A stretch of DNA of 64,000 nt from Herpetosiphonaceae bacterium. GTDB lineage: Bacteria > Chloroflexota > Chloroflexia > Chloroflexales > Kallotenuaceae. Of this stretch, positions 3,470 through 47,094 are shown piece by piece. Within the stretch, counting starts at the first letter, position 1. Every line of letters begins with the position of its first letter. A model generated the notes under the pieces. The model did no database searches. It saw nothing but the letters and a program-made list of their open reading frames with translations, and was not told the origin of the DNA. The translations under genes and the position numbers were made by a program. The stretch spans positions 14,099 through 78,098 of the forward strand of contig JACDGP010000005.1 of NCBI GenBank assembly GCA_013821605.1, read 5' to 3'.

Positions 3470-4468
3470 ATGCGGAATCAGGAACTTCCTTGGACGCAAC
3501 CGGAGTGGCTAGAGGAGGCGAGCGCGTGGGTGCATGGCGAGCTGGAACGTCATGGACTGAGGGTCAGCGGGCCGATTGAGCAGCCGCATCTACGACCCTG
3601 GGCGACCGTGCTGCGCGTACCAACAGCTGCGGGTGCAGTTTACTTCAAAGCGACGGTCCCGATCCTGGCACACGAAGTAGCACTGACTGCTGCACTGGCG
3701 CGCTGGCATACTCATTATACTGTGCCGGTGCTTGCGGCTGATCTTGATCGCCACTGGTTGCTGCTGGCAGATGGTGGTACTACACTGCGCGAGATTATCC
3801 GGGCCGATCATGACCTTCGCCACTGGAAAACGCTCCTGCCCCTGTATGCCGAGCTACAGATCGAGCTCGCCGCCCGCCTGCCTGAGCTGCTGCGGTTCGG
3901 GACCCCTGATCGCCGCCTGCATCAACTACCACTGCAGTATGAGCGGCTCCTAGACGATACGAATGCGCTGCACCTCGATCAGCCCGGTGGCTTGACCGCC
4001 GGGGAGTATCAGCAGCTACGTGGCCTCAGCGCATATGTGACGGAGCTATGTGAACAACTGGCAAGTTATCACGTGCCAGAGTCGCTGCACCATGGTGATT
4101 TCCACGACGCCAATATCTTTGTGCGGGATGGTCAGTTCCGCTTCTTCGATTGGGGCGATAGCTGTGTGACGCATCCTTTCTTTTCGCTGCGCACGGTGTT
4201 TGTCAGTATGGAAATGAGCTTAGGGCTGGACGAGGGGAGCGAACCTTCAGACGTCCTTGACGCCTACCTGGAGCCATGGACGCGCTTTGGCAGTCGAGTC
4301 GAGTTGCATGCGGCTTACAAACTGGCCCGCCAACTGGCAGCGATTTGCTCCGCGCTCACCTGGCACCGCGTCGTATCAACGTTGGCTCCGGCACTCCAGA
4401 TGGAGTATGCCGAGCCCGTGCCAGCGCTGCTGCAAGAGTTCCTCGGCCTCCAGTTGAAAGCAAGATGA
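3470..4468 (+). CDS. Aminoglycoside/choline-kinase-like phosphotransferase (APH family)
   Basis: Catalytic loop HGDFHDANIFV (HxDxxxxN) and FFDWGDS. ATG at 3470 is preceded by GGAGGGGA. Confidence 0.8.
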   Translation: MRNQELPWTQPEWLEEASAWVHGELERHGLRVSGPIEQPHLRPWATVLRVPTAAGAVYFKATVPILAHEVALTAALARWHTHYTVPVLAADLDRHWLLLADGGTTLREIIRADHDLRHWKTLLPLYAELQIELAARLPELLRFGTPDRRLHQLPLQYERLLDDTNALHLDQPGGLTAGEYQQLRGLSAYVTELCEQLASYHVPESLHHGDFHDANIFVRDGQFRFFDWGDSCVTHPFFSLRTVFVSMEMSLGLDEGSEPSDVLDAYLEPWTRFGSRVELHAAYKLARQLAAICSALTWHRVVSTLAPALQMEYAEPVPALLQEFLGLQLKAR

Positions 4469-4472
4469 TCAA

Positions 4473-6551
4473 ATGATATCACAAACGCGTGGGGCTCTAC
4501 AGGAGGCTCCGGCCGTAGCCACAGCGCGGGAGGTACAAGGTACTCGGCTGACAAGCGTACTCCTATTTGTCGCAGCACTGCTGCCACGGGCCGCGCTCTG
4601 GCAGTTTATGACCGTCGACGAGGCGGATCACTGGTTCGACCGGGCCGACAAGTTCCTCCAGGCTGTGCAAAACCGGGATTGGGCCGGTACGAATCTCGTT
4701 GGGCATCCAGGTGTGACGACGATGTGGCTCGGCGCGGCCGGTATCGCTACACATCATGCCCTAGCACGGCTCGGCTTGCTCCATCTCGCCGATCCCATAG
4801 CCCATCGTATACTCCTACGGTTGCCTAGCGCCATTACGACCTCGCTGTGTGTAGCATTAGCTTTTCCACTCCTGCGCCGGTTAGTCGGTGGGCGTGTTGC
4901 TTTGCTCGGGACACTCTTCTGGGCGACAGAACCATTCCTGGTGGCGCATGCGCAGTTGTTGCATACCGATGCCCTGCTCACGTCGTTCATTATGCTGGCG
5001 GTGCTGGCGGCAATGATCGCTTTTCGCTTGGATGAGGGTCCTGATCGGTATGAGCGACCGCTACGGTGGGGCATGTGGTGTACTTCGGCCATCGCGGGTG
5101 GTTTGGCCGTACTTACCAAGTCGCCCTCGGTGGTGCTACTGCCGATGCTTGGCCTCCTTGCCCTGGCCGGGCGGTGGCACGCGCCACGCTTCAGGCATAA
5201 GCTGCCGCTGTTGCCACTCGTTGTGTGGGGAGCTATCGCAGCAGCGGTATGGTTCATCTTGTGGCCGGCAACGTGGGTCGATCCGGTGGGCTCACTAGCC
5301 AGTATGTATCGCGAAGCCAGGTATGACGGCGGGAGTCCGCATGGCTGGGGCAACTTCTTCCTGGGTCATGCGGTGGCCAATCCGGGTTTGCTTTTCTATC
5401 CGGTGGCTATCCTGCTACGACTTGCGCCATGGACCCTGCTCGGCTTGATCGCGGCCGTGGCAGCACTGGTTTGGGAGCGCAGGCGCGTGTGGGAGCGTCC
5501 GGCTTTGCCACTGCTGGCCCTGTTCATCCTCGGCTTTGTTGCTATGATGAGCACCGGCGCGAAAAAATTTGATCGTTATGTGCTGCCGATCTTTCCGGCG
5601 CTGGATGTCGTCGCCGCTGCCGGCATTCTGTGGCTAGCAGGTACGGTGTATCGCAGGTGGGCCACACGCACTGCTCGTCCACTCCCCATCCCCGCTACGC
5701 TGCTTTGGCTGCTCCTTGTTGCGGGGCTCAGCGCAAACCTGCTGGCTTATTATCCCTATGAATTGGCTTACTACGATCCGTTGTTGGGTGGCGGGCGGGT
5801 CGCGGCGCAAACGATTCCAATCGGGTGGGGGGAGGGCTATGATCAAGTGGCGGCCTTCATCGCTAGCCAGTCAGGACAGTGTGACCGGCCGATAGCTGCG
5901 TGGTATAAATCCGTGCTCGCGCCGTATGTTTGTGATCCGGTCGTCTCGATGTATGATGCCTTGGAGCGCGGCAAGGCGCGCTATGCAGTGCTGTATATCG
6001 ACCAGCTCCAGCGCAACAACGCTCCTGAGGTGACTGCGGCTTTGCTGGGCAAACAGCAGCCGCTGTACACGGTACGACTGCACGGCATCCCGTATGCCTC
6101 GATCTACGAACTGCCACCAGCCATCGCGCACCCGGTCCCCGCTACGTTCGGTTCAGCCATTCACTTCAATGGCTATGATGTTAATGCGACGAATATACGC
6201 AAGGACGGAACGCTCACGGTCCGGCTCGATTGGAGTATGGGACGCTCGGTAGCAGAGCAGTATGCCTTGTTCGTACATGTGCTTAATGCGCGCGGTGAGC
6301 GTGTAGGCCAGATAGATGTCCCGCTGGGTGGTTCGCAAGTACCGGCGAGCAACTGGCAGGCCGGTCAACCAGTTTGGTGGGACCAGGGTATCCCGGTGGC
6401 CAAGGATCTGGCACCGGGTACGTACTGGCTAGCAGTGGGCGTGTATAACCCACAGGATTTCAAGCGTTTACCCCTAGCAACCACAGCACAGTCCGACGCA
6501 CCGAGTGATGGGCCGAACGCCCTACGACTAGGACCCGTTGCATTACCTTGA
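4473..6551 (+). CDS. GT-C fold glycosyltransferase, family 39 / ArnT-PMT-like, copy A
   Basis: 692 aa. About 12 TM segments with a first-loop DEADHW motif, and a C-terminal soluble domain of about 200 aa. It starts 4 nt after the APH stop and is a paralog of 45010..47094. Confidence 0.85.
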   Translation: MISQTRGALQEAPAVATAREVQGTRLTSVLLFVAALLPRAALWQFMTVDEADHWFDRADKFLQAVQNRDWAGTNLVGHPGVTTMWLGAAGIATHHALARLGLLHLADPIAHRILLRLPSAITTSLCVALAFPLLRRLVGGRVALLGTLFWATEPFLVAHAQLLHTDALLTSFIMLAVLAAMIAFRLDEGPDRYERPLRWGMWCTSAIAGGLAVLTKSPSVVLLPMLGLLALAGRWHAPRFRHKLPLLPLVVWGAIAAAVWFILWPATWVDPVGSLASMYREARYDGGSPHGWGNFFLGHAVANPGLLFYPVAILLRLAPWTLLGLIAAVAALVWERRRVWERPALPLLALFILGFVAMMSTGAKKFDRYVLPIFPALDVVAAAGILWLAGTVYRRWATRTARPLPIPATLLWLLLVAGLSANLLAYYPYELAYYDPLLGGGRVAAQTIPIGWGEGYDQVAAFIASQSGQCDRPIAAWYKSVLAPYVCDPVVSMYDALERGKARYAVLYIDQLQRNNAPEVTAALLGKQQPLYTVRLHGIPYASIYELPPAIAHPVPATFGSAIHFNGYDVNATNIRKDGTLTVRLDWSMGRSVAEQYALFVHVLNARGERVGQIDVPLGGSQVPASNWQAGQPVWWDQGIPVAKDLAPGTYWLAVGVYNPQDFKRLPLATTAQSDAPSDGPNALRLGPVALP

Positions 6552-6726
6552 GCTCGGTCTTGCAGATACTGCGTCGTTGCTCCACCCCGGATTGAACTCA
6601 TCAGCACGCCATCACCGTTGTAGGTGGGGATCAGCCGGGTGAGTGCGTCGATGGTGTTGGTGCCATCGCTCAGCAGGTTGCCGTATGTAGGAGCGCTCCG
6701 GCGTCCCGCGTTGCTGTCGCACTGCT
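6552..6726 (-). pseudogene. RHS-repeat remnant (about 55 codons) wedged between two genes
   Basis: The minus-strand translation is ...APTYGNLLSDGTNTIDALTRLIPTYNGDGVLMSSIRGGATTQYLQD. It parallels SDALNRLTSTVTGNTTTSSTYNGDGMLVGTTQGGATPQYVQD of the 11401..12573 RHS fragment. Homology stops within about 5 nt of the GT39 stop codon. Confidence 0.6.
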
Positions 6727-8172
6727 CTACCCGTGCCCGAGTTGATACGGGTTATCAGACTGCACCGCCATCAGGTACCACGAGGTCGCGCCGATGTGGA
6801 GGTATTGGAAATAGCCGAAGCCATAGCCCGTATCGAGCGGGCTGGACGCGGCGACCACACCGGTACCCGTCGGAATAGGCTTGCCGCCGACTGTCTGATT
6901 TTGCCCCAAGCTCGCCTGCGCCTTGCGGATATTCAGGAGATAGCCTTCGGCCCTCACCCGATCCCCTGGCGCGGAGCGCTGGAGCAACGCGTCGGCGAGG
7001 TGCGCGGTTCCTTCAAGCCAGACCGCGCTGGGGTCGGGCAACGGACCATAGCCGCCGATCGGCGCGCCCGGATTTGCCCGCAAGCTGGCGGAGGAGAAGC
7101 TTACACCGCTGAGCGTCAGGTTGCCCGTCAGCCCCGAGTTTGGGTCCTGGGGCGTATCAGTGACCCGCAGGTTCGTGTTCGCCCAATCGACCGAGGCCAT
7201 ATAGGTGGGGTCGAGGAGGGCGAGATAGCTCCAGGTCTGTACGTCCTCAGGGATGGGGGTGGGGTTAAGCGTCCCATCCGGGTTGGTACCCGTATAAAAG
7301 TAGCCCGCGGTCGGGTTCCACATTGCCACGATAAATATGTGTGCGTGCGCGGCTCGGTCTGCCCAGGTGCTGTCACCGGTGAGCTTGTTCAGCATCGTGA
7401 AGAAGGCGTAGACGTCGATGTTGTGCTCGGTGGCAGCATAGGTCAGCCGGTTATTAGCGCCGTCGACACCGAAGGTATACCCGCCAAAGCCGATCGTGGA
7501 ATACGCGTTGTCGACGATCCAGTTGCCGAGCGCCGTGGCGCCGTCTTCGTAGCGCTGCTGGCCAGTAGCGGCGAAGAGTTGCGCGAGCGCGATGCCAGCC
7601 CAGGCCATGTCGCCCACGGCGCTGCCAGTGAAGCCGAACTGCGACGCGATGTTCACCGTCCCATCGGGATGGACGAAGTTGTCGGGTTGCGGGGTGCCAT
7701 CATAGAACACGTAGGGTCCGACATTGTAGGCCTGCCGCAGTCGCCCGTCATTGTAGGTAGGGTCGTGCGCCTGAGCATACAGCAGACTATCGCCGAGCAC
7801 CCGAGCCCGCATGCGATCGTCACGGGTGCCACGCGTCAGAAACGCGAGGACCGTGAGCGCGTTATCATACGTAAACGCCGTGCTGAAGAGCCCGTTCTGG
7901 TCGGAGTAGCTTTGGACCAGACGCGTCGTCGTGCCTTGGTCGTAGGCATCCATCATCGTCTGAAGAAACCCGTAGCCGCGTTGGATCGAGTCCAGCAACG
8001 CTGCTGAGCTCTGGCCGGTAGCGCTGGCCATGGTATCACGTGCCGCCGCCACGTTGTCGATCCAACCGGTCGCCAATAAGCCGGCCAGACCAGCCATCCC
8101 CAGACCACGCTTCAAGAAGCTACGGCGTGGAATGCCGCCGTCCCGAATGTTTTCATCTCGTGCTGATCGCAT
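6727..8172 (-). CDS. Tat-exported protein, possibly a six-hairpin (alpha/alpha)6 glycosidase-like fold
   Basis: Twin-arginine signal RRSFLKRGLGMAGLAGLLATG. ATG at 8172 has GAGGA upstream, while 8202 is GTG. The fold assignment is a guess from helical repeat motifs (DNALTVLAFL, GDMAWAGIALAQLF). Confidence 0.7.
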   Translation of the reverse strand: MRSARDENIRDGGIPRRSFLKRGLGMAGLAGLLATGWIDNVAAARDTMASATGQSSAALLDSIQRGYGFLQTMMDAYDQGTTTRLVQSYSDQNGLFSTAFTYDNALTVLAFLTRGTRDDRMRARVLGDSLLYAQAHDPTYNDGRLRQAYNVGPYVFYDGTPQPDNFVHPDGTVNIASQFGFTGSAVGDMAWAGIALAQLFAATGQQRYEDGATALGNWIVDNAYSTIGFGGYTFGVDGANNRLTYAATEHNIDVYAFFTMLNKLTGDSTWADRAAHAHIFIVAMWNPTAGYFYTGTNPDGTLNPTPIPEDVQTWSYLALLDPTYMASVDWANTNLRVTDTPQDPNSGLTGNLTLSGVSFSSASLRANPGAPIGGYGPLPDPSAVWLEGTAHLADALLQRSAPGDRVRAEGYLLNIRKAQASLGQNQTVGGKPIPTGTGVVAASSPLDTGYGFGYFQYLHIGATSWYLMAVQSDNPYQLGHG

Positions 8173-8312
8173 TGCATCCTCGCACTCATCGGCACCGATC
8201 ACCAGGGTGTGGACGCACTATAGCACGATGTGGGCCGGATGTGGTGTACGTCATATGCTATCTCATACCCTCATTGCACATGGTCCGTAATGGTCCATTT
8301 CTGCAACTTCAC

Positions 8313-9325
8313 CTATACTTGGCAACAGCTTACCGCGGAGGTTCTGTACCAGACATGACTCCCACAAACGACACTGCTCCAGTGATGGAATTGCGAGTCG
8401 CGCTGACGACCAACAACTATGAGCGCCTTGTGAACTTCTACTGTATCGGTCTTGGACTTGAACCAGCCCAACTGTGGGCCGGCGGCGACGATCACGCCAT
8501 CATCCTTCATGACACTTTGCACTTGTGCCCGCACCAGGCTTCGGAACGCGACCTCATTGCTGATCTGCGCCGTGGCGAGCTGAAAGCCGACGTTACTTAG
8601 GCCTTGCATTACACGGTCATAATTGCCTTCGCAGAAGCCAGCGAGGATCTCATCGGCCGGGGCCAATGATGCTTGCGCAAGGTACTCTGCAGAGCTGGGC
8701 AGATTGTTCCACAGCGAAGCTGCGCCGCGTCCTAAGACCGGCAGCGTCGCGCCGGGATCATGGAGCAGATCGACCGTGGGCTGGAGCATGCCCTGGATCG
8801 CCTGTCCTACCGTGATGGGTACAATGGCGAACCGGCGGGCGGCATCCTGCACGTTCAAATCCCGTATTCCTGTGACCACCACACAGTCCCGTTCGCCCAC
8901 CGTCAAGGTGTGGCCAAAGACGGTGATTTGCTTCTTTGGAATACAGTTGCCGCTCGGATCGGTGTTGAGCGTCGGGCTGTCATAGCCATACTGATAGGGC
9001 TGGAGTGACATGGGTTGCGATACGTCGCCCGCAAATGGATCGCGCCCCACAAACTTACCACTGCCCGGTTGATACCATCTCGCCCCCAGGTTGACGAGTC
9101 CCGTGGTCGCATCCTGCAATTCACATAGCTCGTGCCAGGACTTTCTGCCGCGCTCGTGAGCCGTTGGAGGCCGTCATAACCGTACTGGACACTCCGCACT
9201 TGGCTTCCCAAGGTCTCGGTCACCGACAGCCGGTCGCCCACACGGTCAAGGCCATACTGGAAGCGACTGCGCGCGATCCACCGCATCTCCGACAATTTCG
9301 CAGCAGAGCTTAACCTCTGAAGCAA
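8313..9325 (-). pseudogene. Frameshifted, internally deleted RHS fragment with an uncharacterised C-terminal tip
   Basis: Frame A (9325-9110) has YD/RHS repeats (RFQYGLDRVGDRLSVTE...VQYGYDGLQRLTSAAESPGTSY). Frame B (9119 onward) has ELQDATTGLVNLGARWYQPGSGKFVGRDPFAGD...NTDPSGN, then a unique tail. Its last 65 or so codons are antisense to the VOC remnant. Confidence 0.7.
8354..8600 (+). pseudogene. 5' remnant of a VOC/glyoxalase-family gene
   Basis: MELRVALTTNNYERLVNFYCIGLGLEPAQLWAGGDDHAIIL resembles a VOC N-terminal beta-alpha-beta-beta-beta unit. After about 8510 the frame looks non-homologous, and the opposite strand carries RHS-tip coding sequence. Confidence 0.4.
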
Positions 9326-9452
9326 CTACTATGTTTTCAGGTACAATATGGCAATACCTTCGCCAAAAATCGGACAACGCTTTGGATCCCTTGCAGTGAT
9401 AGGTTTTGACAGTGTGTTGCCGGGCGGGAATTAAAACCTGCTTCACGCAACC

Positions 9453-9480
9453 TTGCCACAATTTAGTTTGATCATACTAT
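9453..9480 (+). promoter_or_regulatory. Candidate sigma-70-type promoter for the 9532 hydrolase gene
   Basis: TTGCCA (9453-9458), a 16-nt spacer, then TACTAT (9475-9480), about 50 nt upstream of the ATG. Confidence 0.35.
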
Positions 9481-9531
9481 GTCACGCCCCTGTGCCTTCC
9501 GCCGTGAGATGACCTCTTTTACAAGGAAAAA

Positions 9532-10554
9532 ATGGCGAGGGTATTGCTGATTCTACAGGATTTAGTTGCAACCGGATGGCTCACTATGACTACAAAACGT
9601 GCCTCTTATGTATTATGGACTGTACTCGCAATTGTGCTTAGCGTGAATATCATTGCGTATATGCAAGCACGTGCGATGACCCACTTTACTCAAGCGGGAC
9701 AACGAACCGAGCCTCCAGAGCGCCTATCGGTTGGTGCAAAAATTCGGACTGTGCTGTCAGGCGTCACGATCCCGCGACCGGAGAACCATCATACGCCTGC
9801 GGACCTCAAGTTACCTTATGCTGTACATTGGATTCATGAGCCAGATGGCACAAGACTGGAGGGCTGGATTGTGCCCTATCCAGATTCTCACGGCGTCGTC
9901 CTCCTTTTTCACGCCTATGCTGTGAGCAAGGAGACGTTGCTTGCTCCGGCCTCTGCTTTCCATGAGCTAGGCTACGATACTCTGCTCCTAGATTTTCGAG
10001 GATCGGGTGGATCAAGTGGGCATGAGACGAGCTTAGGGGTGAGAGAGGGAACCGATGTGGCATGGGCCGTCATCTATACACAACACATGTGGCCGGGCAA
10101 ACCAATCATATTGTACGGCGTATCGATGGGAGCCGTAGCAATTTTGCGAGCCATCGCTACGGCAGGTGTCGCACCTGCAGCTATTATCCTAGAAAGTCCC
10201 TTTGATCGGTTGGACACGGCGGTGACGAATCGAGTCCGGGCAATGGGGCTGCCCGGGTTTCCTGTGGCAGAATTGCTCGTATTCTGGGGCAGTATGCAGG
10301 AAGGATTCGATGGATTCGCGCACAATCCAGTCGACTACGCGACAACCGTACGCTGCCCCGCATTATTATTACTGGGTGATGAGGATGCGCGGGTGACGAT
10401 CGCGCAAGGAACTCATGTCTTTGATAAACTACACGAGCCCAAACAACTCGTACGCTTTCCCCACGCCAACCATGAGTTCTTGCTCCTAGAGGACCCGGTG
10501 ACGTGGCGACGACACGTAATGCAGTTTCTAGAGTCAGTTAAACAACATGTATGA
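9532..10554 (+). CDS. Membrane-anchored alpha/beta hydrolase (ABHD13/Bem46-like serine hydrolase)
   Basis: N-terminal TM YVLWTVLAIVLSVNIIAY, nucleophile elbow GVSMGAV, late HANHEF. ATG is preceded by AAGGAAAAA. GC is lower than in the flanks. Confidence 0.8.
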   Translation: MARVLLILQDLVATGWLTMTTKRASYVLWTVLAIVLSVNIIAYMQARAMTHFTQAGQRTEPPERLSVGAKIRTVLSGVTIPRPENHHTPADLKLPYAVHWIHEPDGTRLEGWIVPYPDSHGVVLLFHAYAVSKETLLAPASAFHELGYDTLLLDFRGSGGSSGHETSLGVREGTDVAWAVIYTQHMWPGKPIILYGVSMGAVAILRAIATAGVAPAAIILESPFDRLDTAVTNRVRAMGLPGFPVAELLVFWGSMQEGFDGFAHNPVDYATTVRCPALLLLGDEDARVTIAQGTHVFDKLHEPKQLVRFPHANHEFLLLEDPVTWRRHVMQFLESVKQHV

Positions 10555-10680
10555 GCAATCGTTCCAAAGGTTTGCGCGAAGAACAGGATATAGTATCTTT
10601 GTATTATATCTTACGACAGGCGCTCGCATCATGTTCAGCAACCTTTGAGGTGCGGAAGCCTCGATGTTTGCCATGGTATA

Positions 10681-11130
10681 TCAGCAAGCATGTCGCTCTG
10701 AGTCACGTTTTCGTTTGAGATCCCAAAGCGTCATTCCTATTCCGTTCAGCCATAGTGGCCAACAGACACCTAGTATGGCTAGTCGGAGGACAAATAGATG
10801 GGTATAACTATCTTCCCAGGTCGTCGGTTGGTAATGTTCTGGCCATCCAGTTTGGAAGAGTAAGACCAATAACGCACTGATCAAAAAACTTATCGGCACC
10901 CCACCCTTTTGCCACCGGCCGGAGGGCATCAGCCAGCCGCAGAAGCCGAGGAGGCTGAGAGGCAGCGCAAATTGAAGGAGAGGTCCAATCAGAAAATCAT
11001 AGATATTGAGATACCACGGTGCACTGGTATACAGACGATACGCGAAAATAACACTACTCAGTACAAGAGCTGTACTCATCCAACGCCTTGTAAGGAACCT
11101 CACCACTGTTGTAACCTTATCTACAGCCAT
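10681..11130 (-). CDS. Small 4-TM membrane protein (candidate immunity protein for the upstream RHS tip)
   Basis: 149-aa ORF with four hydrophobic segments, AT-rich like the toxin tip. It lies 270 nt downstream of the RHS-tip stop on the same strand. I recognise no family. Confidence 0.55.
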   Translation of the reverse strand: MAVDKVTTVVRFLTRRWMSTALVLSSVIFAYRLYTSAPWYLNIYDFLIGPLLQFALPLSLLGFCGWLMPSGRWQKGGVPISFLISALLVLLFQTGWPEHYQPTTWEDSYTHLFVLRLAILGVCWPLWLNGIGMTLWDLKRKRDSERHAC

Positions 11131-11400
11131 TCAGAGTTCTACCCTTTCTATATCCATCGGTGAAAGATGTGACCAAACACATCACTATTTTCTGGTTGCA
11201 CCTTAGGCCCGTCCTCATAATAGAAGAGGATGAAGGTGTTATTAAGGCAGACCGTCCTCCTCGGTCCGTGCCGTTTTCGCCGCAGGGTGATGCTAAGAAA
11301 CTGCCGTAACTACATAACCGTTACCAACCTCATGCTTATCGGAGTGCAATTGGTCTGGATCCTATCCCCTGAGTGCTACCTGAGCGATTACCTGTTGGGC

Positions 11401-12573
11401 TTAATGTATGGAACGGATTGCACTTTCTGATATTGACCAAACAGGGTTTGGTCTAGTTTTAGTACTATCAAAGAACTCGTTGTCAAGTGTAGTGTGTATG
11501 GCTCCATCGACCAACCAGTTCTCTGCTCCATCCACGTACTCTGGAACCAATAGAAATGCTTTTTCTGCGACATTTAGAGGTGAATTACCGGATGTAAAAT
11601 TGAGCTGTCTCACAACCGAGGCTGGCTTCTTAGCCATTTGCACATCAGCAGAAAGATTTACTATATCTTCCGTAATCATGAGGTCAATCTTAACACTAGG
11701 TAAATCAAGTGCCACATTCATGATAGTCTGCGCCCCTAAACTGTGACCTACTAAGATAATAGGTTCAACTGAACAGGTACTGCTGCTAACCGAGCGCACC
11801 AGTTGCTCAATACCCAGCGCATTATTCCAAGGTGCGATGAACGTCTTTCCAGGAATTATACCTTTACCAGCGAATCTACGCCCCATTTCCCACACGCTAA
11901 CCATATGTTGTGGATTAAATGGATCTTGAACATAAGTATCCGAGCCTAGACCTCCAACAAATACAGCTAAATTCCCAGAGGGATCAACTTTGTTTACGGG
12001 AGTGTTTTCGACGTAGGTATAGGGCACGGCAGTCTGCGGGAGAGTCAGTAATCCAGTAAATGGATCGCGTCCGACAAACTTGCCACTGTTTGGCTGATAC
12101 CATCTCGCCCGCAGGTTGACGAGCCCCGTCGTCACATCCTGCAATTCACCGGTAAAGCCAAAGCTGCCCGGCTGCGTCGTGCCCTCGACTTGCCCCCACG
12201 GGTCGTAGTTGATGGCTTTCAACGGCACCCCGCCATTGCTCAACACTTGGCGCCCACTGCCCAACACATCTGTCCCAAACCAGGTCTTCACGCCCCCTTG
12301 CACTGCTGTCAGCCGCTCGCGCCCATACAGGTAGGTGATGTTCGTCGTGCCGGTCGTGGACTGCAGGATTTGGGGCAAACTTGTCGCCAGGTCTTGCACA
12401 TACTGGGGTGTGGCTCCGCCTTGGGTCGTGCCGACCAGCATGCCATCGCCGTTGTAGGTCGAACTGGTCGTCGTATTGCCCGTGACGGTCGAGGTCAGCC
12501 GGTTGAGCGCATCGGACGGGAGCTGTGTGGTAAGCTCCCCGGTTGACATCGAGTATAGCAAACGTGACGTCAA
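11401..12573 (-). CDS. Orphan RHS C-terminal core fragment fused to an alpha/beta-hydrolase (lipase/esterase-like) toxin-type domain
   Basis: RHS core end ...INYDPWGQVEGTT..FGFTGELQDVTTGLVNLRARWYQPNSGKFVGRDPFTGLL, then VFVGGLGS...ILVGHSLGAQ (GxSxG). There is no RHS shell upstream. The ORF opens with TTG, and the first ATG is at 12549. Confidence 0.75.
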   Translation of the reverse strand: MTSRLLYSMSTGELTTQLPSDALNRLTSTVTGNTTTSSTYNGDGMLVGTTQGGATPQYVQDLATSLPQILQSTTGTTNITYLYGRERLTAVQGGVKTWFGTDVLGSGRQVLSNGGVPLKAINYDPWGQVEGTTQPGSFGFTGELQDVTTGLVNLRARWYQPNSGKFVGRDPFTGLLTLPQTAVPYTYVENTPVNKVDPSGNLAVFVGGLGSDTYVQDPFNPQHMVSVWEMGRRFAGKGIIPGKTFIAPWNNALGIEQLVRSVSSSTCSVEPIILVGHSLGAQTIMNVALDLPSVKIDLMITEDIVNLSADVQMAKKPASVVRQLNFTSGNSPLNVAEKAFLLVPEYVDGAENWLVDGAIHTTLDNEFFDSTKTRPNPVWSISESAIRSIH

Positions 12574-12674
12574 TAACCGGCGTCCACAACCGAAAAATGG
12601 CAGTCCATAAGTCCTATGATGGAAGGGTGGATAGGGGATACCGAGGTATTATCAGGGTAATGGGAGTTGAAGCC

Positions 12675-14136
12675 ATGCACATCTACGGGCGAGGCGGTCG
12701 ATTAAGCAGTCGGTTGGCGGTCACGAAGGTTTGGGTTTGTCTGGTTGTTTTGCTTGGTGCTAGCAGCCTGGGGGTGGCGGGTGCATCCGGCAGTGCCTTT
12801 ATCCGTGTTAATCAGATCGGCTACAGCACCAGCGGGATGAAGCAAGCGGTGTTGATGGCAAGTGGTTCGGAGAAGGGTGCGATCGTTAAGCTGGTTGACG
12901 CGGCGGGCGGTACCCTATGGAGTGGAGCGATTGGGCCAAAGCTGGGAGCGTGGAGCAGCGGTTTTCCCGATGTGTATCTGCTCGACTTCTCGACCGTCCA
13001 CATTGCCGGGAGCTATACACTGCAGGTCGCCGGCCCGATCAATGCGGCATCGCCCCCATTCCGGATCGACAGTGGTGCCAAGCTGTACAGCGCTTTGCTG
13101 CCCAATGCGCTCTTCTTTTATAACGCACAGCGGGATGGCGCCAATGTCGATCCGAGCGTGATGCAGCGCAAGCCGTCGCATTTGACGGATGAACAGGCTA
13201 CTATGTACCAGCCGCCGGTGTATCTTAATGGCCGGTTGCAGGGTGACTTGACGCCGATTGGGACAACTATTGATGTAAGCGGTGGCTGGTTCGATGCCGG
13301 CGACTATCTCAAATTCGTCCAAACGGCGAGCTATGTCGATGCTGCGATGCTTTTTGGGGTGCGGGAACATCCCGATGTGCTGGGGGCGGGGGCGGCGGAT
13401 TTTGCCAGCTAAGCACGCTTTGGCCTTGATTGGCTGCTCAAGATGTGGGACGACCAGACGCAGACGCTGAGCTATCAAGTTGGTATCGGCGATGGCAACA
13501 ACCAGATTGTTGCCGATCACGATGTGTGGCGCTTGCCACAAGCCGACGACCAGCTGCATGTACAACCCGGCGATGCGAAGTACTATATTAAGTACCGGCC
13601 GGTCTTTCGAACCGGCGATGCGGGTTCAGCAGTCAGCCCGAATCTTGCCGGCCGGTTGGCGGCCAGTTTTGGGCTGTGCTTTCAAGTGTATCGCTTAAGC
13701 GATCCCGCCTATGCTCAACGGTGTTTGATAGCCGGTGAGCGTATTTTTGATCTTGCTCAGACGACGCAGGTTGGACGACTCACGACAGCTTCGCCGCACA
13801 ATTATTACCCCGAGAGCGAGTGGGGCGACGACCTGGAACTCGGCGCGACCGAGCTTTATCTGGCGACGACGAGCGGCCCGCTGCCGCCGGGGTTGCCACA
13901 TTCCGACCCGGCGTACTACCTCCAGGGCGCCGCACAGTGGGCGGATGCGTATATACATGGACCGAACGATGGCGCAGACGCGCTTAATCTGTATGATGTT
14001 AGCGGGCTAGCACACGAGTGGCGCGCGCCGCTGCCCACCGGCAGGGGGCGATCCGTTCGCGGTTTTCAGCGGCCAGGGTGCGCGGTACAAGGATGACGTG
14101 CGCTCCTGGGTGACCGTTGAGCCGACGGACGACTAG
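12675..14136 (+). pseudogene. Glycoside hydrolase family 9 endoglucanase, disrupted
   Basis: Signal peptide, an Ig-like N-domain (FIRVNQIGY) and the GH9 motif DVSGGWFDAGDYLKF. In-frame TAA at 13410-13412 falls inside ...ADFAS*ARFGLDWLLKMW. A frame change and deletion lie near 14010-14045. The C-terminal signature YKDDVRSWVTVEPT is in the +1 frame and ends at TAG 14134-14136. I found no H-x-R signature. Confidence 0.8.
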
Positions 14137-45009: not shown

Positions 45010-47094
45010 TCAGTGGATCGTGAAAGGTCCCAGCAGCAACGCGTCGTTGCCGTCCGCCGGCGCATCCGGCGTGGCCGGACCGTGCAGCGGAAGCCGCTTG
45101 AGATCGTCGCGCCCGTAGACCCCCAGTGCAAGCCAGTAGCTGCCCGCCGGCAGGTCGCGCCGCAGCGGAATCGGCTGGTCCCAGCCTACTGTGCGCCCCG
45201 GCTGCCAAACGGGAGCGGGTGCCTGGGGCCCGACGAGTGGCAGATCGACCTGCGCGACGAGTTTACCCTGTGCATCGAGCAGATGGGCAAACAGGTTGTT
45301 ATTCGTCACCACAGATGGATCAGCCTGCCACGCCAACGTCGCCGTTAAGATGCCGCTGCGGCGCACAGCACTGGTCTTGATGTCATAGCCTTGCACCCGG
45401 AGTGCGGAGCCGAAGGTTGCGCTCAGCGGCTGCACGGGCGGCAGCAGTTCGTAGATAGAGGCGTAGTCAATGCCGTGGATGCGGATCGTATGAATGGGCT
45501 GCTTGCCTCGTAACAGGGCGATGCTTTGTGGCACGTCATTGCGCAGGATTTGGTCGATATACAACACTGCATAGCGCGCCTGGCCGGGCTTGAGCACCGA
45601 GTCGATCGGCACGACCGCGTCACAGGTATACGGTACCAGTGCCTCGCCAAACCAGGCGGCGATGGGCCGGTCGCAACCCGCATGCTGTGTGGACAGATAG
45701 GCTCCGACCTGCTCGTACCCCTCGCCCCATCCGACGGGAATCGTCTTAGCCGCAACCGTGCCGCCGAGTGCCTGGTTATAATACGCTAGCTCATAGGGAT
45801 GGTACCAGGCGAGATTCGCCGCCAGAGCACACGCAACCAGGCCGTATAGCAGCCCAAGCGAGCGCCGCGAGACGGGGCGAGCGTCGCGTCGTGCCCAACG
45901 TCGTAGCAGCTGTTCCACTCCAACCAAGCCCGCTGCTGCGAGGATATCGAGTGATGGAAAGATCGGCAGCACATAGCGGTCGAATTTCTTGGCCCCCACC
46001 GTCATCACACCGACAAACAGCAGTACGAAGATGGCGAGGAGGACGAGTGCAGCGCGGCTCCGTTGGGCGCCTCGTCGTAGCAGGATGGGTATGGCCAGGA
46101 CGGTGCCCCCCAAAGTCCACGGCGTGAGCCGCAGAGCAACGGCGACCGGATAGAACAACGGTCCGGGGTCGGCGATAGCCCGGCCCAGAAAGAAATTGCC
46201 GTAGGCATGCGGTTCGCCACCGTCGTACCGTGCCTGGCGATAGATCGCCATGACCGCGCCCAGTGGGTTAACCCAGGCCGCCGGCCAGAGCGCAAACCAC
46301 ACCACGATGGCGACGCTGCCCCAGGCCAACAGTGGCAGCACGGGCAGCTTGCGCCACAGTTGGGGCGCCCGCCAGCTTCCCACGAGCCCAATCAGGCCTA
46401 GCATGGGGATGAGCACGATCGAAGGCGACTTGGTCAAGAATGCTAGTCCGCCAGCTACGCCGGAGGCTACCAGCATGTACCAGCGAATTGGTCTTGTGGG
46501 TGATATATACCCATCGTCCAGGCGAAAGGCAAGCATCGCGCCGAGCAGCGCGAGCGTCATGAACGAGGTGAGCAGTGCATCCGTATGTAGCAACTGCGAA
46601 TGAGCGACCAGAAACGGCTCACCCGCCCAGAGCAGACCCGCCAGCAGTGCCAAGCGGCGCCCGAACAACCGGGCAAGGAGCGGCACAGCCAGGCAGATAC
46701 AAAGTGCTGTCACAAGCGCCACGGGCAGTCGTAATAGTTCACGCGTGATGGCCATGTTGTTGGCACCGGCGAGGCCGAGCTTGGTGAGTAAGCGGTGGGT
46801 GAGGATACCAAAGGTGCCAAGCCACATGGTTGTAACGCCCGGATGGCCGACCAGGTTGGTACCGGCCCAATCGTGATGCTGGAGCGCACGGAGAAAGTTG
46901 TCGGCACGAGGGAACCAATGATCGGCCTCGTCAACGGTCACGAACCGTCCTGCCAATGCGCGCGGAATCAGTGCGAAGACGAAAAGCAGCGCGGTTACCG
47001 GCCAAGCAACCTTGTCAAGCGCTGCCGGTATAGCAGTTGACCGACCCCGCTCAAGCGCAACAATGTTCACTAGTTGGTCGTGGCTGCGGTGCAA
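45010..47094 (-). CDS. GT-C fold glycosyltransferase, family 39 / ArnT-PMT-like, copy B
   Basis: 694 aa, collinear with 4473..6551. By hand count 99 of 145 aligned residues are identical from FVTVDEADHW to AFRLDDG. TTG start at 47094 is uncertain. Confidence 0.85.
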   Translation of the reverse strand: MHRSHDQLVNIVALERGRSTAIPAALDKVAWPVTALLFVFALIPRALAGRFVTVDEADHWFPRADNFLRALQHHDWAGTNLVGHPGVTTMWLGTFGILTHRLLTKLGLAGANNMAITRELLRLPVALVTALCICLAVPLLARLFGRRLALLAGLLWAGEPFLVAHSQLLHTDALLTSFMTLALLGAMLAFRLDDGYISPTRPIRWYMLVASGVAGGLAFLTKSPSIVLIPMLGLIGLVGSWRAPQLWRKLPVLPLLAWGSVAIVVWFALWPAAWVNPLGAVMAIYRQARYDGGEPHAYGNFFLGRAIADPGPLFYPVAVALRLTPWTLGGTVLAIPILLRRGAQRSRAALVLLAIFVLLFVGVMTVGAKKFDRYVLPIFPSLDILAAAGLVGVEQLLRRWARRDARPVSRRSLGLLYGLVACALAANLAWYHPYELAYYNQALGGTVAAKTIPVGWGEGYEQVGAYLSTQHAGCDRPIAAWFGEALVPYTCDAVVPIDSVLKPGQARYAVLYIDQILRNDVPQSIALLRGKQPIHTIRIHGIDYASIYELLPPVQPLSATFGSALRVQGYDIKTSAVRRSGILTATLAWQADPSVVTNNNLFAHLLDAQGKLVAQVDLPLVGPQAPAPVWQPGRTVGWDQPIPLRRDLPAGSYWLALGVYGRDDLKRLPLHGPATPDAPADGNDALLLGPFTIH

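Follow-up and report, generated by a model that had tools for sequence, protein, structure and literature searches.

The 64,000-nucleotide (nt) window analysed here is part of a short-read metagenome-assembled genome (MAG) of a Herpetosiphonaceae bacterium (Chloroflexia), in which it sits on a contig of 94.9 kilobases (kb). It carries three minus-strand pieces of RHS proteins, which are very probably dissociated C-terminal tips of a Sec-type RHS/YD-repeat polymorphic toxin family common in Chloroflexia, lying in a decaying stretch of DNA. All minus-strand frames of the region were examined, and the pieces were named A (6552-6726), B (8313-9325) and C (11401-12573). C and a membrane protein of 149 amino acids (aa) encoded behind it would together make up a complete toxin-immunity cassette, both the toxicity and the immunity being predicted from sequence. 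A preliminary description of this DNA had assigned the three segments to the RHS C-terminal region, and all of them were recovered at levels of similarity above chance. The coordinates of the pieces and of their parts are collected in Table 1.

Table 1. Features of the three RHS pieces and of the associated candidate immunity gene (positions in the window).
Feature	Positions	Strand	Description or basis
Remnant A, 58 codons of YD tail with small internal deletions	6552-6726	-	NLLSDG...YNGDGVL...GGATTQYLQD
B, core end (8949-9124) and toxin region	8313-9124	-	NCBI hypothetical protein H0X37_02140
B, deletion junction	9124-9128	-	...GGCACGAGCTAT joined to GTGAATTGCAGGAT..., out of frame
B, YD-repeat piece	9128-9325 (similarity 9128-9316)	-	other frame than the B core
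Candidate immunity gene for C	10681-11130	-	149-aa hydrophobic protein, read as multi-pass membrane protein; conserved linkage
Tip C	11401-12573	-	intact 390-aa open reading frame; RHS similarity from about 12543
C, predicted toxin domain, 190 aa, minimal alpha/beta hydrolase (lipase/esterase-like)	11401-11973	-	motifs, profiles, structure model, Foldseek
C, conserved part (last YD repeats and RHS core)	11974-12549	-	ends ...RARWYQPNSGKFVGRDPFTG-x22-DPSG
Conserved core block of C and B	12053-12149; partner 9028-9124	-	ELQDxTTGLVNLxARWYQPxSGKFVGRDPF; 87% over 97 nt

Searches with the RHS core profile TIGR03696 (76 positions, cut-off 32.5 bits), a check proposed in the preliminary description, identified the core in C with 65.1 bits (E=6e-18, profile positions 1-75, aa 123-200) and in B, whose open reading frame (ORF) at 8313-9119 reaches 39.8 bits (E=5e-10) over positions 24-75 only. 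A gave no match in the hidden Markov model (HMM) searches and contains neither core nor toxin. In C the core is preceded by YD repeats, recorded as a precomputed PF25023 TEN_YD-shell match, and the tip-family profile aligns to the C-terminal end of solved Rhs/teneurin-like shells (9pt5, residues 2026-2147, and 8h8b, residues 975-1153). Both C and B read RDPF.G-x22-DPSGN, with a demarcation motif of the DPxG type at the end of the core. Among the relatives of C, similarity is high through GRDPF.G-x22-DPSG and thereafter tracks the type of toxin.

C and B are also tied together at the DNA level by the conserved core block. A hand alignment of 12061-12149 with 9036-9124 had counted 78 matches in 89 nt, which proved exact, and the next-best ungapped placement of this segment in the window, on either strand, matches at 42 of 89. 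Over the parts of the block that tips of other genomes overlap, their identity is 66-77%, and because the two copies within this genome agree at 87%, B and C would belong to one within-genome rhs lineage or have been homogenised against it. The similarity between them ends abruptly after GRDPF.G, within the core, and their toxin domains are unrelated; the block is likely a homology arm for tip exchange.

The window holds no rhs shell gene, as had been stated. When C and five full-length RHS proteins of Chloroflexia were used as tblastn queries, A, B and C were the only places hit, and the only ORF of more than 1000 aa in the window encodes a glutamate synthase. The open frames begin 17-35 codons ahead of the first RHS similarity and include neither an N-terminal delivery domain nor a complete shell. 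Within these 64 kb no piece stands downstream of a full-length rhs gene with a shared core, a layout that is typical of such tips and not strictly defining.

The scatter of the pieces might be artefactual, a normal rhs locus having been split by a chimeric or mis-joined contig or by collapsed repeats, and the short-read origin of the MAG speaks for this. A separate Logan assembly (run SRR11719862) agrees with the window over 3675-9451 and over 10530-13541, at 100% identity. One of its contigs holds A between the genes for a GT39-type protein and a Tat-signal protein, together with the out-of-frame junction of B; the other holds C, the candidate immunity gene and a GH9 gene. Because this assembly shows no difference, A, the B junction, C and their unrelated flanks are not the quirk of one assembler. 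The Logan contigs break at 9451, 10530 and 13541, so that only the MAG assembly connects the B block to the C block across 9452-10529. Against an assembly artefact, each piece is recovered by the second assembly along with unrelated flanks, the B deletion junction and the boundaries of A are interior to Logan contigs, and no piece adjoins shell sequence; we consider such an artefact very improbable. The breaks themselves are located within the hydrolase gene on the opposite strand and within the GH9 pseudogene (see below), and may point to strains that differ around the tips or to low coverage there.

Tip C and its candidate immunity gene

C is intact, as first described, with all 390 codons open. 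NCBI places its start at the ATG at 12549, giving 382 aa, and the database protein identical to it at 100% is named 'RHS repeat-associated core domain-containing protein [Herpetosiphonaceae bacterium]'. Both a TTG and an ATG are start candidates, and a divergent intergenic gap of about 100-125 nt separates them from the start of the GH9 gene; by inspection there is no signal peptide in C and no clear ribosome-binding site. About 190 aa precede the toxin domain, and as a full-length Rhs protein has a shell of roughly 1000 aa or more and an N-terminal plug or secretion domain, C falls outside the full-length class.

Base composition changes where the core ends. The G+C content at third codon positions (GC3) drops from 0.71 in the conserved part of C to 0.35 in the toxin domain, abruptly at the boundary between the two, host genes having values of 0.64-0.76. 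The Rhs elements of Escherichia coli combine a G+C-rich core with an A+T-rich tip in the same way as C.

Concerning the nature of the toxin domain, an alignment of eight sequences displays a VGHSLG motif with an invariant Ser, and a candidate Asp and an H-T motif that are kept in most of them. The VGHSLG Ser, the conserved Asp and the His-Thr motif make up a candidate Ser-Asp-His triad; the predicted catalytic Ser and His and the candidate Asp are conserved relative to homologues at 41-57% identity. Matches of the domain to Pfam are sub-threshold only (Abhydrolase_6 and DUF726), and its profile matches in the PDB, to the esterase YbfF and to lipases, are weak (E=1e-3 to 0.1). AlphaFold2 (AF2), run with an eight-sequence alignment, gave residues 191-382 block-mean predicted local distance difference test (pLDDT) values of 46-93, mostly at least 70, and in the same run the shell fragment of C remained at 25-40, only the toxin domain being well modelled; the single-sequence AF2 prediction of C had a pLDDT of 36. 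A Foldseek search with the toxin model retrieved LipA of Bacillus subtilis and Bacillus pumilus and the rumen lipase Lip_vut1 at target TM-scores of 0.62-0.69. By this model, the fold class of the C toxin is that of an alpha/beta hydrolase of the minimal-lipase-like kind.

The genes interleaved with the tips had been described as unrelated to them. This stands for the Tat-signal protein and for the hydrolase, neither of which showed a sign of membership in the toxin system in HMM and similarity searches. It does not stand for the ORF at 10681-11130, which had been overlooked and which is probably the immunity gene of C. It starts 270 nt downstream of C, and HMM searches placed its product in no curated family at threshold. 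Homologues of the 149-aa protein with 47% identity are encoded directly after homologous lipase-like tips at two other loci, at 2454-2855 of L002 (E=1e-37) and at 2709-3110 of L062 (E=2e-36; loci found in other genomes are designated here by L numbers). Because a lipase-like toxin and this membrane protein are paired in three independent contexts, the two are read as a putative toxin-immunity pair.

Inactivated tips and their neighbourhood

The shell content of B amounts to about 63 and 58 codons in two frames. Its YD-repeat piece is sub-threshold against RHS_repeat PF05593 (E=0.003, 18.5 bits, cut-off 22 bits) and aligns with full-length RHS proteins of Chloroflexia (E=3e-9 to 7e-9). On the 2263-aa RHS protein of locus L005 this piece corresponds to aa 1667-1733 and the core piece to aa 1894-1953, and since the flanks of the junction map to aa 1733 and aa 1894, about 160 codons have been lost from B. 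At the junction the sequence reads ...AGCTAT followed by GTGAATTGCAG..., with the frame shifted; the joining of YD repeats out of frame to the core end had been described correctly, and it is placed here at 9124-9128, the Logan assembly containing it too.

The core end of B is followed by about 210 codons without relatives. For the toxin region (8313-8948), a word-indexed search of 5.8 billion protein clusters found no relative beyond its own NCBI and Logan entries, and the homology search with B returned, besides itself, one protein, which matches the core alone. No small ORF follows B, the next gene, which encodes the 491-aa Tat-signal protein, beginning 110 nt on. As judged from its sequence, B is a pseudogene, inactivated by an out-of-frame deletion and lacking an immunity gene. 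The opposite strand has a weak VOC-like (YycE-like_N) match that covers the last 50 codons or so of the B toxin region, and because of this overlap the true end of the toxin region is uncertain. What had been called a VOC remnant is this one match, with E=0.0017 and under the cut-off; codon-position GC at 8313-8520 favours neither strand as coding. For annotation purposes, H0X37_02140 (8313-9119) is better recorded as a pseudogene fragment than as a 'hypothetical protein', and the ORF at 10681-11130 as a probable immunity gene.

Remnant A, previously put at about 55 codons, comprises 58, and matches C (E=3e-5) and the family consensus (E=3e-6) by tblastn; its DNA is 76% identical to that of C over 70 nt (6556-6625 against 12390-12459). 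It coincides exactly with the 175-nt gap that separates two convergent genes, from the stop codon of the GT39-type gene (6551) to that of the Tat-signal gene (6727). Its similarity to C begins at 6551-6556 and thus abuts the GT39 stop at 6551, in agreement with the distance of about 5 nt given before, and the repeated rearrangement that had been proposed for the locus is supported. As its frames are read, A, like B, is pseudogene debris, which would be unable to supply a working toxin. The preliminary description had further viewed the three pieces as a silent cassette archive; this notion can be kept for C, and has to be given up for B, with its out-of-frame deletion and no immunity gene, and for A, with no core and no toxin.

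It could be argued that only the immunity gene has been kept, as an orphan-immunity island, and that all toxin parts, C included, are decaying: of the three tips, two have already been inactivated, pseudogenes abound nearby, and there are precedents for orphan immunity genes being kept and expressed (PMC3150448, PMC10539506 and PMC12247911). On the other side, the 390 codons of C are open, its presumed catalytic residues (Ser, His and the candidate Asp) are conserved relative to homologues, and retention of immunity is no general rule here, because B and A have lost their immunity genes. We regard this alternative as somewhat unlikely.

The neighbourhood has further peculiarities. About four decayed genes lie between 6.5 and 14.1 kb, namely the GH9 gene, A, B and the weak VOC-like remnant. 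The GH9 cellulase gene (12675-14096, plus strand), divergent from C, is a pseudogene with an in-frame stop at 13410-13412 (..DFAS*ARFGLDW..), and by 14096 it covers the GH9 Pfam profile to position 238 of 444 only. The hydrolase gene at 9532-10554 (plus strand; Hydrolase_4, E=5e-16) encodes an N-terminal hydrophobic segment and has a GC content of 0.53 and a GC3 of 0.51, below that of the host; its product has no similarity to the C toxin, it is absent from the other tip loci, and it may have come with foreign DNA. The window contains two paralogous membrane glycosyltransferase genes of the PMT_2 type (GT39-like), at 4473-6551 (plus strand) and 45010-47094 (minus strand), with products of 692 and 694 aa, the one beside A being full length. 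No flanking direct or inverted repeats pointing to a mobile element and no tRNA gene were found in the window. A search for synteny in metagenomes by means of the Tat-signal protein gave three loci, at 42-46% identity, with no shared neighbours; the tips may have been inserted singly or been left by a lost rhs gene.

Related tips in other Chloroflexia

A pattern scan of species-representative genomes yielded 56 loci, of which 52 are from Chloroflexota, mostly Chloroflexia. Full-length rhs genes with the tail of C are present at L004 (at least 2716 aa, Herpetosiphonaceae), L005 (2263 aa), L007 (at least 2023 aa), L008 (2663 aa) and L030 (2404 aa). All five have DUF6531 and many RHS repeats, signal-peptide-like N-termini are recognisable by eye in L005 and L008, and a Pfam search found no PAAR or VgrG domain in these full-length relatives. 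A main gene followed by a detached tip is seen at L030 and L003, and tandem arrays occur at L002, with 3 tips, and at L062, with 7 tips in 10 kb and a small ORF after each. Isolated tips are found as well: four of them (L011, L012, L041 and L043) have 10 kb of shell-free sequence upstream, and a fifth (L063) has 3.4 kb.

Some of these loci show additional features. L062 corresponds to positions 1-10093 of contig VIYF01000116.1 (GCA_009389605.1); its toxins include Ntox44 and one of its immunity-like ORFs has HEAT repeats. One tip of this array is the closest relative of the lipase toxin of C outside its own MAG, and the homologous membrane protein is encoded after it. Three relatives have the RHS tail directly behind non-RHS domains and lack a long YD shell. 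In L003 (4415-10165) an SBBP domain and 11 FN3 domains precede the tail, after which come PT-HINT and a DddA-like deaminase. In L015 (3579-6083) the order is Laminin_G_3, RHS tail and toxin, and in one further protein (P0021) ELWxxDG-like repeats take the place ahead of tail and toxin.

An exhaustive profile-free search with the tail of C gave 159 representatives at E<=1e-30; among the best 150 of these 159, 22 have at least 1400 aa and 112 have fewer than 700. The short relatives start anywhere from 24 to about 500 aa before RARWY, and because the start points vary in this way they fit ragged truncation better than a designed short architecture. A conserved 'mini-RHS' family had been suggested by 81 word-indexed matches, all of 216-680 aa, and was ruled out by the full-length genes with the same tail, the word-indexed search having overlooked the long relatives because of its word filter.

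C could also be taken as an autonomous, expressed short RHS protein, either acting inside the cell, toxin-antitoxin-like, together with the immunity protein or using another delivery route. That its ORF is intact and has a TTG and an ATG start within a divergent intergenic region of 100-125 nt would agree with this, as would the fact that most relatives are short ORFs, many of them Met-initiated, and an orphan rhs module of Salmonella is reported as a type II toxin-antitoxin module (PMC7043789). What argues for a detached tip instead is the absence from C of a signal peptide or a clear ribosome-binding site by inspection, the wide variation of tip start points among homologues, and the low pLDDT of the shell fragment (25-40) against the well-folded toxin domain. 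Moreover, a lipase-type toxin with a membrane protein as immunity partner suggests a membrane target reached from outside, and an autonomous C seems to us quite improbable.

A different role for the tail in Chloroflexia may be considered, suggested by the mosaic proteins of L003 and L015 and by P0021, in which these roughly 200 aa would be a portable adaptor, working without a cocoon on varied surface proteins. If this were true, scattered tips with no rhs shell gene nearby would be explained, because adaptor tips could be recombined onto many kinds of surface proteins at any place in the genome; we consider the idea improbable.

Proposed tip exchange and comparison with known systems

In the history that we propose, tip C would be undeliverable alone, having no signal peptide and only about 190 aa of shell, too short for a cocoon enclosing the toxin. 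Its toxin would become active only once homologous recombination via the core block joins it to an rhs gene of full length, and the same recombination event would carry the immunity gene along. Meanwhile, the immunity gene may protect the cell from neighbours deploying the same lipase toxin. B and A would go back further in the same within-genome lineage, as tips that deletions have inactivated and that have no function. We infer that C is still competent for recombination, the acceptor having been kept or lost elsewhere in the genome.

Several observations weigh against this proposal. Protein searches found no full-length rhs acceptor with a closely matching tail, and there is none in the window, which leaves the recombination role of C without a visible partner. 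The tips do not form a tight array, and a simple displacement model predicts something other than the arrangement seen, in which the gene for the 491-aa Tat-signal protein and the opposite-strand hydrolase gene lie between the tips. With its possible start codons and the 100-125 nt to the GH9 start, C may be expressed, unlike typical silent tips. Finally, the promoter-like site at 11245-11217, upstream of the immunity gene, does not exceed chance expectation, and the promoter and terminator scan as a whole did no better than shuffled sequences.

The preliminary description had considered an arrangement of this kind undescribed outside Proteobacteria. The claim fails, because such cassettes have been known in Chloroflexi since 2012 and the Chloroflexia relatives with the same tail show canonical layouts. 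Zhang et al. (2012, PMC3482391) found polymorphic toxin systems and their cassettes to be abundant in Chloroflexi, with a median of about 3 cassettes per active toxin, catalogued alpha/beta-hydrolase toxins (Tox-ABhydrolase-1 to -3), and described RHS stalks as Sec-exported in Gram-positive-type lineages. Their cassettes are likewise toxin-immunity pairs (PMC3482391); the lipase domain of C and its membrane immunity protein were assigned to no named Tox or Imm family here.

The case thus adds to RHS tip turnover one more example, with a new, predicted pair of lipase-like toxin and membrane immunity protein. The scattered, shell-less placement of the tips is mildly unusual; it recurs in related genomes and opens no new question alone. 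Regarding delivery, a WapA-type, Sec-dependent RHS toxin of Bacillus subtilis is said to have been reported by Koskiniemi and colleagues in 2013. A Sec-dependent RHS toxin of the WapA type is also known in Streptococcus suis (PMC12704120). Proteins of this type have a signal peptide, a YD shell of large size and, at the C-terminus, a variable toxin with an immunity gene downstream, and the full-length Chloroflexia relatives are probably of this type; the window itself holds no delivery part.

In Enterobacteria, orphan tips have been explained by repeated displacement by incoming tips, which recombine in the conserved core (Jackson et al. 2009, PMC2935791). The orphan modules encode working toxin-immunity pairs, and orphan immunity genes have been proposed to give broad protection (Poole et al. 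2011, PMC3150448). Koskiniemi et al. (2014, PMC3967940) reported that evolved Salmonella inhibiting their ancestral cells by contact had been selected for expression of an orphan Rhs toxin. The orphan rhs of Salmonella Typhimurium (Starsta et al. 2020, PMC7043789) has its own immunity gene and no delivery part, as does C, and, unlike C, lies beside a full-length gene. Two differences from the enterobacterial systems stand out. No intact rhs gene directly precedes the tips described here, which have unrelated genes between them and a Chloroflexia host; and the full-length relatives appear Sec-exported, from their N-termini as read by eye and from the absence of PAAR and VgrG, and not linked to a type VI secretion system. 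The likenesses lie in the modules themselves. The enterobacterial rhs-CT/rhsI modules combine, like C, a short core with an unrelated toxin and a small immunity gene, without a delivery part, and, as in the window, their tips have a switch in composition at the boundary, with several tips of one lineage occurring together and some carrying stops or deletions. RHS tip turnover would thus proceed in Herpetosiphonaceae, and in Chloroflexia beyond them, in much the same way as in Enterobacteria.

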